From the NCBI RefSeq assembly GCF_054482595.1, contig NZ_CM137008.1: a stretch of DNA of 64,000 nucleotides; one strand, written 5' to 3'. Positions 59,301 through 62,300 of this stretch are shown here, piece after piece (within the stretch, counting starts at the first letter, position 1; each line of letters starts with the position of its first letter). The position numbers were made by a program.

Positions 59301-62300
59301 ATCAGCAAAAATGTAGCCAACGTTGATCCCAGGTGACGCATCACCGCCAAGCCATTCAGCCATCATCATTTCAAGGTCGTTGACGCCGTCTTCCATAGAC
59401 TGCGGTTCGACATCGGTTAACGTGGCATTTGATGCCACACCGAGCTTACGTAATGCCGCAAGAACTAAATCACCCTTCGTTGTCAGGTTCATCTGCTGCC
59501 GCCTTAGGTTTTCGACCAGGCTTTTTACGCTGTTTTTCTTCTGGCTCTGGCTCCGGCTCTGCAACATCCTTCAAAAGGTCATCAGGATGTGAAAACCAGC
59601 CAGCATCCAGATATTCCTGAAGCTCTTCGGCTTTCACGATTTCAAAGTCGTATCCAACGCCTTTCCATTTCTTCATGTCGCCATGACGAAAGATCATGTG
59701 TGTCATGCTTGTCTCCAGATAAAAAAGGGAGCCGAAGCTCCCTCTGGTTATCACGCGGTCTGGTTAGGCAGACCAACACCAATTGCCTCTGGTCGTACAG
59801 CACATGCTGAATACCACACAGCAATACGGCACTTACCAGACAGAGTGTTGATATCACCCTGCGTTGCGAAGATGCCGTTAACACCAATGCCAGGAATGCT
59901 GAAGGAAGACGTTTTCATACCAGCAAACAGTTCATGGGTTACCGGGATAGGCTGAGACAGCAGACGGATTGAGTCATCAGCCCAGAACACGTTAGCGGTG
60001 GTCGTTGCCACGTTCAGAACGTTTACCGGAGTGGTATCAGCAAGAGAGGTGTTTACGTTAGCGTAAGCCTTCTCTTCTTTTGTCAGTGACGCGTCATCCA
60101 GTGCAATCGGTTTCGGCGTGATTTCGATGTGAGTACCATCGATCACACGGGTGATTGAGAAAGTCGCATCATCAGTCAGCACGTTCTTCGCCATCTGAGA
60201 CAGGAATTTCACACCAGTGAAACTGATTTTGTCGCCGCGCTTAAATCCGGTGGTGGAGGATACGGTCACCGTTGCAACACGGTTGTCGACGTTCTCTTTG
60301 TTACCATCGGTATCAAGGGTGTATGCCTGCGGCTTAAACTTCTGCGCACCAGAAACAGTTACACCAGTAGCGGTTGACTTGGTAACTGCCGGAAGTTTCG
60401 GTGAGCGAAGAATTTCATCAAAGCCAGCAATCTGACGCTGAATAGTACCGTTGTGATACGCATCTTCAGGAACGCGCCCGAAGATGTCACCATCTACAAG
60501 ATTGCGGCCTGCTTTGCGGTAATCGTCAGGGTTCAGGAAGTAACTGATACCCATGTCGCGGTTGAGTTCGCGGGAGAACATCAGTCGCTCTGCATCAGAC
60601 ACAAAATCCCAGCCAGACAGGCCAGTAGATGGACCAATTGCGCGGGTATCGTGAACAACAAGTGAGCCCATTTCGGTTGCCTGTTTGGCAATTGCTGACT
60701 CAATGTTATTCGCCAGTTTTTTGGCGGATGCCTGGATGCGGCGACGGTAAGAACGCTCATCACGCAGGTCATCTGCACGAAGCTCGAAGAAATCGTTATC
60801 CGGATCGCCCATGTTGCACTTCACGGAGAGTTCCAGAATCCCGGTTGCGTTGCCAGTTAAATCCCAGCCAGTCTGGGTTGGCGCTTCCTGCTCAACAGGC
60901 ATCCACACGGTGTTGCTTGAACGCTGCATGGATTCTGCCGGAGGGGTGTATTTTGTCACTTTGGACGCCATTGGCGTCAGGTTCTGGACGGTTTCGATGA
61001 TTTCATCCAGAGCATACGTGACCAGTTGACCTTCATTTAATGCCATTATCGAATTCCTTTATTCAGTTGCGCCTTAAGCTTGCGGTACGTCTCTACATCC
61101 CCTTTGTTTGCTGCCGCTTCCATCTGCTTTTCAATCGCAGAGATATTTGCAGCAACAGCGTGTCCCTGAATGGGTTCATCAGGTAACGGGGCTTCTGAAA
61201 CAGGCTTGGCTCGAGGCTTGAGAGTTAAACGTTCTGACAGTCGAGTGAGTTCAATCAGCGCGGATTGCCCGTCCATCGCCAGCAACTGGCGTGTTTTCTC
61301 AGGATTAGCACCAAGGTGATACATGAGAGCAGCGGATTTCTCCGGGAAGAGGCGCATGATGTCGGCACCGACTGCTGGCGGCACCAGTTGCATGAATGCA
61401 TCCTCTTTCTCCTGATAGTCAGGGATATTGAGCTTTTCCGCTGCGTCGTAGTGCTTACGGGCTGCCTCGACGTATTGCGCTGATTGCTGGGTGAACTCCT
61501 GAGTTTTGCGACCCTGCTCGGCGACAGCCTGGCTTCGTGCGTCCATAGCCTTGATCTGCCATTCACTGTTTGCCTGCTGGAAGGCAGCCAGTGCTCGGCT
61601 CTGGTCATAGTCGTACTTAGCCAGCGCATCTTCGGAAAGATAATCGTTAGGGTCTGGTTGTTTTGGTAACTCAGGGTTCACCCGCAGGTGCTCCGGCAAC
61701 TCCCCACGCTTAACCGCTTCCATCTGCTGCTCAAGCTCACGCTGGCGTTTGCGTTCGATGCGGCGACGGGCAAATTCAGCATTAGTTGCCGGGTCTTGTT
61801 TTGGTTTCTCATCGTCTTTCAGGACAATCTCGAAGCCTTCTTCCTGACCTGCGTTGTCGTTGGCATTATCGACAACTAAGCCATCAGCAGATGCCGCTGC
61901 ATGATTGCCGGGCAGGGTTAATTCTTCAGAAGCCTGAATGTCGGTGGTTTGGTCCATGGTTAACTCTCTCTTATTGAGGTGTCTCGGCTACTCCGCCGGA
62001 GGGGATTTGAACTTGACGCATAAGATTCGCGAAATCCATGCGTTGTGAATGAGTCTGGTCTGCATCTTTAAGAAGCAGCTCAGCGTTAGCACGAGCATCT
62101 TTGCTGCGCTGTTGCTGGAATTGACCTACGAGCTTGAGGTACTCACGCAGTTCTGCCTGCTTGTCGAGGTCCATATTGTTGAAGATTTCCGCAATCTTCG
62201 CGGCGTTGAGTTGGTTTTGGGCTTCAACCTTGGCGGCTTCAACCTGAATCTGCGCCTGTTGGTTCTCTGCCTTGAGCAATTCAGCCTGACCTTGCAGAAG

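Follow-up and report, generated by a model that had tools for sequence, protein, structure and literature searches.

A late operon of the P22 type contains a short open reading frame (ORF) between its coat protein gene and gp4, and the question is whether this ORF is a genuine gene and, if so, what its product does. The locus belongs to a 64,000-nucleotide stretch of contig NZ_CM137008.1, hereafter the window. On one side of the ORF is the gene for a P22-type coat protein (59751..61046, minus strand; PF11651, E = 2.8e-165). On the other is gp4 (58992..59492, minus strand), which encodes a head-completion or head-tail adaptor protein of 166 aa (PF11650, E = 1.1e-58; phrog_637 'adaptor Ad3'). 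The original prediction of a 78-aa ORF with a GGAG ribosome-binding site and a particular low-complexity tail was accurate in each of these points. The ORF reads on the minus strand from 59706 to 59470, comprises 78 codons plus stop, starts with an ATG at 59706-59704 and finishes with a TGA ending at 59470. By sequence reading, the GGAG motif is at 59713..59716, 6 nt ahead of the ATG. Length by itself says little, because ORFs of 40 aa or longer number 69 across the surrounding 9 kb and one of such length is unremarkable by chance.

A small late gene of the orf69 family

Judged from its sequence and that of its relatives, the ORF is almost certainly a real protein-coding gene. In 11 close relatives, pN/pS over codons 1-48 was 0.076 in the ORF frame as compared to 1.23 and 1.43 in the other two. 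Homologous DNA is present in 216 of 5,426 complete E. coli genomes. All six E. coli loci that were retrieved carry a PGAP 'hypothetical protein' CDS, and five of them share the start codon; the sixth, in which it differs, is a variant with a WDGH insertion. The ORF matched phrog_1175 with E = 2e-37, residues 1-76 aligning with profile positions 1-72 of 72, i.e. the full length, and 98 of 106 aligned relatives matched this profile as well. BLASTP against P22 orf69 gave E = 7e-11 at 32% identity over 72 aligned positions. Membership in the orf69 family (PHROG 1175), and orthology to P22 orf69, Sf6 gene 6 and HK620 hkbT, can thus be assigned with near certainty. The family forms 236 clusters at 50% identity and has the consensus MLYKxG...DYxIVDxxEVxxYLxxGWxxxP.

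These assignments correct the expectation that P22 itself has no equivalent gene. P22 orf69 (6135-6344) is flanked by gene 5 and gene 4, and Sf6 gene 6, HK620 hkbT and CUS-3 ECRS218_0017 occupy the same slot between coat gene and gp4. A family member was found in this interval in all four phages named for comparison in the original prediction. Each of seven distant members likewise follows a P22-type coat gene and precedes P22_Tail-4, with gp4 immediately downstream, and distant members stay adjacent to gp4 even where a different gene follows the coat gene. When phages were sampled through gp4 instead, a family member was present upstream of it in six of seven diverse phages (four strong and two weak cases). 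In the Sodalis phage phiSG1, gp4 is present and no orf69-type ORF was found; the family is therefore not universally required. In nearly all P22-like phages sampled, the orf69 family is positioned just ahead of gp4, whose start it usually overlaps. The ORF is not a new insertion but a conserved small late gene and part of the P22-type head module, an ordinary gene that has already been catalogued.

The junction with gp4

The ORF had been regarded as inserted between coat gene and gp4. Instead, its end overlaps the true gp4 start by 23 nt (59470..59492, minus strand), the gp4 ATG at 59492 being in the +1 frame. Among 11 diverse loci, nine show an overlap of the family ORF with the gp4 start, 4-26 nt in length. 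The gp4 Shine-Dalgarno sequence UAAGGCGG (59499..59506, minus strand) resides inside the ORF codons Pro-Lys-Ala, and this octamer precedes the gp4 ATG by 6-7 nt in the window, P22, Sf6, CUS-3 and a Vibrio prophage. Both the Shine-Dalgarno sequence and the start codon of gp4 fall within the last approx. 10 codons of the ORF, and ribosomes ending the ORF therefore stop approx. 20 nt within gp4. On the upstream side, a terminator scan located a GC-rich hairpin that has a UUCG loop and a run of T residues behind it; it lies downstream of the coat stop codon and ahead of the ORF (59718..59745, minus strand; fold energy −18.9 kcal/mol, z = −2.8). A hairpin occupies the equivalent spot in 8 of the 11 loci and is annotated as 't coat' in Sf6 and 'tGP5' in HK620. 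The first cistron past this hairpin is the ORF with its own strong ribosome-binding site.

Translational coupling is suggested by the overlaps (9 of 11 loci), the conserved UAAGGCGG that the ORF contains and the upstream hairpins (8 of 11 loci). In cis, translation of the ORF would bring ribosomes to gp4 and might set gp4 output past the hairpin. A fusion with gp4 by programmed frameshifting was considered and rejected, as an open gp4 frame upstream of its start is not conserved: it extends over 26 codons in the window, a single codon in P22 and 2-17 codons in the other loci. The gp4 frame relative to the ORF is +1 in eight loci and +2 in three.

Because the ORF overlaps gp4, annotation errors recur at this locus. 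In IME10, Louie and Dewey, gp4 is annotated too far upstream, through the repeat. The small gene is absent from the annotations of IME10 and APSE-2, and a different short CDS takes its place in Louie and Dewey.

Architecture of the ORF product

The ORF product is acidic overall (E 14%, K 13%, D 10%, P 9%; net charge −6; pI approx. 5.0) and consists of four parts, namely an acidic folded domain, a (Glu-Pro)n spacer, a basic AT-hook-like segment with the motif GRKPK and an acidic end that covers the gp4 start. The N-terminal domain corresponds to codons 1-48 (59563..59706, minus strand) and carries a net charge of −4. AlphaFold2 predicts two strands (residues 2-14 and 17-25) followed by two helices (26-35 and 41-49), with a pLDDT of approx. 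90 over residues 1-49. Over residues 50-78 the pLDDT is 51-57, in agreement with the earlier description of a disordered charged tail. No sequence or fold relative of the product was found among solved structures. DUF7302 remained short of the cutoff (E = 0.029) and was matched by only 1 of 106 relatives; the ORF is not a member of it.

The spacer (59536..59562, minus strand) is encoded by a hexanucleotide repeat, detected by Tandem Repeats Finder at 59540-59561 with a period of 6. Its copy number is polymorphic, ranging from 1 to 8 across the 11 close relatives, and spacers among 120 database homologues are 4-22 residues long. The adjoining basic segment (59500..59535, minus strand) has a net charge of +7. 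A hook-like G-R/K-x-P motif is present in 40 of 111 family members, and 16 of the 111 have the canonical RGRP. Pfam AT_hook (PF02178) matched 2 of 106 relatives (E = 6e-4) and did not match the window protein, whose motif reads KKPGRKPK. Since the Lys-Ala end of this motif is dual-coded by the gp4 Shine-Dalgarno sequence, the 'hook' may in part be a by-product of this second coding role.

Variation extends to other parts of the protein. Several distinct N-terminal subtypes exist within the family. Some prophages have a WDGH domain inserted between two parts of the protein, and variants with coiled-coil tails occur, too. A resemblance of variant C-terminal tails to HeH/SAP domains was noticed by eye and discarded, as neither Pfam nor PDB gave a match. 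Subtype divergence correlated with that of the coat protein with a Spearman rho of 0.50 and with that of gp4 with a rho of 0.09, values that were set aside because the domain is too short and the pairs are not independent of each other.

Possible roles and known counterparts

No function has been assigned to the orf69 family in the libraries or the literature searched, and no discussion of orf69, Sf6 gene 6 or hkbT was found in that literature. We tentatively favor the reading that the ORF is an orf69 orthologue coupled to gp4 whose product acts as a non-virion accessory of packaging or head completion, and consider this reading as a whole quite possible. Its component in trans is a low-confidence guess: the product may assist DNA packaging or head completion without entering the virion, with the acidic folded domain binding a head or neck protein and the tethered basic hook touching DNA or an acidic surface. 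The assembly accessory role already raised in the original prediction is plausible but unproven. Against the favored reading, classical P22 genetics is not known to have revealed an essential gene at the orf69 position, and gp4, gp10 and gp26 suffice for P22 head completion in vitro. A more far-reaching version holds that P22-type head completion almost universally involves the orf69 family, a component so far overlooked, as a small factor that tethers the cut DNA end. Here, the acidic domain would sit on the portal, gp4 or the terminase, an HMGA-like basic hook would grip the cut end while it passes from terminase to gp4, and coupling to gp4 would set the dose. We regard this version as rather improbable.

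A role outside assembly, e.g. in host takeover, counter-defence or regulation, would make the ORF product an accessory or moron-like protein riding in the late operon. Within the module, no gene differs more from its P22 counterpart than the ORF (38% identity as opposed to 59-92% for its neighbours), which also diverges fastest between lineages. Such behavior, the multiple N-terminal subtypes, a small charged product with variable tails and the lack of any known assembly role for the family would all suit a moron. However, the slot just upstream of gp4 is fixed although the coat proteins share only approx. 25% identity, whereas morons are usually sporadic and equipped with their own promoter and terminator. 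Furthermore, PADLOC and NCBIfam searches returned no match. On balance, a moron-like function appears unlikely, albeit worth keeping in mind.

The arrangement at the gp4 junction could also mean that the ORF is only a translational leader that opens and feeds gp4 initiation past the coat hairpin and encodes a functionless peptide. The gp4 Shine-Dalgarno sequence and ATG inside the ORF, the near-universal overlaps and the upstream hairpin are what a leader predicts, and a low-complexity, length-polymorphic tail and the existence of phiSG1 without the ORF are compatible with it. Purifying selection on the amino acids of codons 1-48, a motif kept across 236 clusters, a confidently predicted N-terminal fold and the acquisition of domains such as WDGH and coiled-coil tails are not expected of a mere leader, and this explanation is therefore disfavored; we consider it distinctly unlikely.

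Can the product be part of the particle, either by decorating the capsid or as a DNA-associated protein that is carried inside and ejected? The original prediction had proposed decoration and ejection. Its gene belongs to the head module, the disordered charged tail bears a DNA-hook-like motif and a 9-kDa protein could escape notice on gels. Against this, the ORF resembles no decoration or ejection family, and the ejection proteins gp7 (55722-56414; PF25688) and gp20 (54347-55711; PF16928) are encoded by separate genes according to Pfam. An ORF at the gp16 position is present in the window as well, without a Pfam match. The published virion composition of P22 does not include the orf69 product (PMC8402733), which speaks against both proposed locations. 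Neither proposal was borne out by these comparisons, and we judge a virion component to be very unlikely. The capsids themselves point in the same direction, as we know of no additional surface protein in the high-resolution maps of P22, Sf6 and CUS-3. Descent from a homing endonuclease, with the ORF as a degenerate remnant of the DNA-binding module, is highly improbable: the strand-helix-GW core of the ORF product resembles tandem repeats of GIY-YIG and HNH-type nucleases with NUMOD1/NUMOD3 (hhalign probability of 96.8% over 23 columns, secondary-structure elements in the same order) and HNH genes have invaded the head module in phages Louie and Dewey, but single repeats score just 8-21 bits, acidity in the phage domain (mean −2.5) contrasts with basic nuclease repeats (mean +1.6), the motif is also found in secreted Firmicutes proteins, and the ORF has a fixed start and position and is under purifying selection.

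The discovery value of the locus is small, given that the gene is annotated in P22, Sf6, HK620, CUS-3 and many prophages and that databases contain near-identical proteins. Nevertheless, a well-studied phage assembly pathway carries a conserved, gp4-linked gene without a Pfam model or an assigned function. Its architecture, with an acidic domain, a variable spacer, a basic hook and the gp4 ribosome-binding site inside, lends itself to cheap experiments.

Among known systems, phage L Dec and other decoration proteins are, like the ORF product, small proteins from P22-like phages, yet in profile searches the ORF matched none of the decoration families. The Dec gene is located elsewhere in the genome and Dec is visible on capsids. 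To our knowledge, no Dec-like density has been seen for P22, although P22 carries orf69. The approx. 35-aa repeat GKIWINNGxxNKxIxPxELQxYLDxGWxxG of the homing endonucleases shares the strand-helix-GW core with the ORF, but it is basic and arranged in tandem whereas the phage domain is acidic and single, and the match spans 23 columns only; neither of the two is represented by a Pfam model or related to a PDB entry. AT-hook proteins (PF02178), such as eukaryotic HMGA, resemble the ORF product in having a short basic motif of the Gly-Arg-Pro type in a disordered context with acidic flanks. Their canonical RGRP contrasts with PGRKPK in the window protein, where the sequence is partly constrained by the gp4 Shine-Dalgarno sequence.

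The accessory reading that we favor finds a possible parallel in gpFI of phage lambda, a DNA-packaging accessory that is absent from virions and whose gene lies between the major capsid gene E and the adaptor gene FII. Small, acidic and half-disordered, gpFI is encoded after the major capsid gene and a hairpin and before the first head-tail adaptor. It is thus similar to the ORF product in position and general type. The folded part is C-terminal in gpFI and N-terminal in the ORF product, and no sequence or fold similarity between the two was detected. P22 orf69, Sf6 gene 6, HK620 HkbT and CUS-3 ECRS218_0017 share with the ORF the slot, the overlap with the gp4 start and the upstream hairpin, and the proteins of P22 (NP_059631), Sf6, HK620 and CUS-3 (PHROG 1175, 3251) show the same layout of a domain followed by a basic tail. 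Identity of the ORF product is 32-38% to P22 orf69 and approx. 20-25% to the Sf6/HK620 type. From its P22-type relatives the window protein is set apart by an N-terminal subtype of its own (KWKGVGYD...GWFSHPDDLL) and by an expanded (Glu-Pro)n spacer.

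A P22-type late gene and its coding status

The ORF between the coat and gp4 genes runs on the minus strand from an ATG at 59706 to the end of its stop codon at 59470. Its 78 codons, its charged C-terminal tail and the GGAG ribosome binding site 6 nt 5′ of the ATG were all confirmed in the sequence. It is embedded in a minus-strand late operon of the P22 type, in which it follows the portal gene (truncated at the window edge; Pfam P22_portal), the scaffold gene (Phage-scaffold) and the coat gene (59751-61046; PF11651, E = 2.8e-165). The coat stop codon and the ORF are separated by a GC hairpin that has a UUCG loop and is followed by a T run. 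Downstream are gp4 (58992-59492; PF11650, E = 1.1e-58), gp10 (Phage_stabilise), an ORF in the needle position (56872-57573) without a Pfam family but 77% identical to P22 gp26, an ORF in the gp14 position (DUF2824, PF11039), gp7 (P22_gp7), gp20 (Inj_translocase), a 621-aa ORF in the gp16 position (52482-54347) and a tailspike gene with the P22 head-binding domain. Unlike the adjoining gp7 and gp20, the 621-aa ORF has no Pfam match at E up to 1e-3. Window positions 1-47000 resemble host chromosome flanking the tailspike end of the prophage, and no tRNA gene was found anywhere in the window.

Chance short ORFs are abundant in the region. That this one is a protein-coding gene follows from several observations. 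PHROG 1175, a family of unknown function, matches ORF 59470-59706 over its full length (E = 2e-37). When the window was compared with five phages and five E. coli prophages (11 close relatives in all), pN/pS over codons 1-48 was 0.076 in the ORF frame compared with 1.23 and 1.43 in the other two frames. Homologous DNA occurs in 216 of 5,426 complete E. coli genomes; all six E. coli loci examined carry a PGAP 'hypothetical protein' at this position, and the start is the same in the five without a WDGH insertion. Finally, AlphaFold2 (106-sequence alignment) models residues 1-49 with a pLDDT of about 90, against 51-57 in the tail.

The original prediction regarded the ORF as an insertion, apparently without an equivalent in P22. 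This interpretation does not hold, as P22 orf69 (6135-6344) occupies the same slot between gene 5 and gene 4, is likewise preceded by a stem-loop and is homologous by BLASTP (E = 7e-11; 32% identity), with the segments EL.EY...GW..HP..LL and GRKPKA in common. Sf6 gene 6, HK620 hkbT and CUS-3 ECRS218_0017 are found in this slot as well, 3′ of the annotated coat terminator. Thus, the gene is a standard feature of the module, already catalogued as P22 orf69 and PHROG 1175. Both its membership of this family and its coding status are secure.

An exhaustive profile search (E up to 1e-3) retrieved 236 family clusters at 50% identity, mostly of 55-100 aa, with the consensus MLYKxG......GxxxDYxIVDxxEVxxYLxxGWxxxP followed by a variable tail. 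Each of the seven distant members examined is flanked by a P22-type coat gene and a P22_Tail-4 gene. The P22_Tail-4 gene is invariably the next one downstream, including in modules where a further gene of 201-217 aa separates the family member from coat. This extra gene (L010 1161-1766 and L014 4298-4951, two distant P22-type modules) has no Pfam or PHROG match and could encode a decoration or accessory protein. To avoid circularity, seven diverse phages were additionally sampled on the basis of gp4, and six of them carry a family member directly upstream of it. Matches were strong in Proteus V3 (3e-21), Vibrio 1.275 (5e-12), Vibrio 1.079 (1e-9) and APSE-2 (1.5e-8), and weaker, within larger proteins, in Kc259 and sortkaff. 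The APSE-2 member (MERKSVFAWSDNAAGYVQAVIV..., L027 about 1314-1502) is unannotated, the P24-P27 interval being blank in the record; P27, downstream of it, is the gp4 homologue. Sodalis phage phiSG1 is the sole gp4-bearing element sampled without a family ORF in the coat-gp4 interval (L026 1200-1495), where the post-coat hairpin is kept.

Protein architecture and a possible link to nuclease repeats

The predicted N-terminal domain has two strands (residues 2-14 and 17-25) and two helices (26-35 and 41-49), with a one-residue bridge at position 38 between the helices. Its charge is −4 (family mean −2.5; negative in 83% of members). The spacer that follows is a hexanucleotide microsatellite encoding 1-8 Glu-Pro units among the 11 close relatives; among 120 database homologues it spans 4-22 residues and includes Asp-Pro, Glu-Ser, Glu-Gln and Glu-Thr variants. 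The basic segment resembles an AT-hook: a G-(R/K)-x-P-type motif is present in 40 of 111 members and canonical RGRP in 16. Pfam AT_hook matches two family members (E = 6e-4) but not the window protein. Other variants of the protein have coiled-coil or Lys/Ala-rich tails. In some E. coli prophages, for instance EC3 (L025 204-803; also protein P0144), a 195-199 aa variant in the same slot matches PHROG 3769 and carries a WDGH domain (PF25311, E = 1.9e-39) between the N-terminal domain and the same basic tail, showing that the two ends can be separated as modules. In the E. coli homologue P0001, a 13-residue stretch where the folded domain ends occurs twice.

The profile search also matched about 25 proteins of 250-480 aa (P0138, P0156, P0161, P0166, P0257 and about 20 other metagenomic proteins), which are homing-endonuclease-like GIY-YIG or, in one case, HNH-like nucleases with NUMOD1 or NUMOD3. 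Each contains 3-8 tandem stretches of about 35 aa (GKIWINNGxxNKxIxPxELQxYLDxGWxxG) that match neither a Pfam model nor a PDB entry and seem to be a nuclease-associated module not described before. When the profile of the phage domain was aligned with that of 101 repeat units, the probability was 96.8% over 23 columns, and a three-repeat AlphaFold2 model (pLDDT 93.5) shows a hairpin, a helix and a short strand per unit, the element order predicted for the phage domain. A module shared with these repeats, which lie where homing endonucleases keep DNA-binding parts, is only suggested: single repeats score 8-21 bits, their basic character contrasts with the acidic phage domain, the repeat itself is without known structure or function, and secreted Firmicutes proteins carry the same motif. 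P0219 and P0245 are Firmicutes-like proteins with signal peptides and tandem copies of a similar strand-helix-GW(Y) motif (e.g. TLYAPDGRTISVHDYEVNTYKSLGWYDVPV). Separately, an opposite-strand HNH endonuclease gene lies between scaffold and coat in phages Louie (L004 2720-3247) and Dewey (L005 2732-3253) and is absent in the window and IME10-like phages.

The gp4 junction

A longest-ORF call placed the gp4 start at 59567 (191 aa). This is an artefact; the true start is ATG 59492, from which gp4 begins MNLTTKGDL (P22, MQIKTKGDL). The ORF thus shares 23 nt with gp4; the overlap in P22 is 17 nt. Overlaps of 4-26 nt occur in nine of 11 diverse loci (gaps of 2 and 14 nt in the other two), and a hairpin with T run precedes the ORF in eight. 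The gp4 Shine-Dalgarno sequence UAAGGCGG, 6-7 nt 5′ of the gp4 ATG in the window, P22, Sf6, CUS-3 and a Vibrio prophage, reads (Pro/Arg/Ala)-Lys-Ala in the ORF frame of the first four. Consequently, the Lys-Ala of GRKPKA and the last seven ORF residues are dual-coded with the gp4 initiation region and N-terminus, and their conservation cannot be attributed solely to the small protein. Hairpin, overlap and embedded Shine-Dalgarno sequence together predict translational coupling of the ORF to gp4. A conserved frameshift fusion to gp4 was excluded, since the upstream gp4 frame is open for 26 codons in the window and for one in P22.

The small gene is a recurrent source of gp4 mis-annotation. In IME10 (L001 593-1198), Louie (L004 592-1179) and Dewey (L005 592-1185), gp4 bears a spurious N-terminal extension (MLQSQSQSQ...), which is the Glu-Pro repeat read in another frame; the IME10 record omits the small ORF, and those of Louie and Dewey call a different 45-aa CDS overlapping the coat gene end. 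The widespread GenBank/RefSeq name 'recombinase RmuC' for gp4-family proteins (e.g. L002 592-1092, APC_JM3.2) seems to be a wrong name, passed from record to record, for the head-completion adaptor of P22.

Functional considerations

Pfam, NCBIfam and PADLOC have no model for the ORF product, and a viral structure library returned uncharacterised proteins only. We tentatively regard it as an accessory factor that is co-expressed with gp4, stays out of the virion and assists head completion or DNA packaging. In cis, translation of the ORF would couple that of gp4; in trans, an acidic docking domain might act together with a tethered basic hook. An essential role is disfavoured by phiSG1, which lacks the gene, and by divergence from P22, the ORF being the least conserved in the module (38% identity; scaffold 85%, coat 73%, gp4 59%, gp10 92%, gp26 77%). 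Nor is orf69 known to have been needed in P22 genetics or for completing heads in vitro, which argues in the same direction. The decoration or ejected protein originally proposed finds no support in family and structure searches, in the gene content of the operon or in the P22 virion composition given in PMC8402733, where the protein is not listed. The observation itself stood and its interpretation did so only in part; what is left of value is that a model phage carries this conserved, still uncharacterised gene and that gp4 is repeatedly mis-annotated on its account. The likeness of the ORF to lambda gpFI, to which no similarity was detected, is positional: the gpFI gene lies between those for the major capsid protein and the first adaptor.
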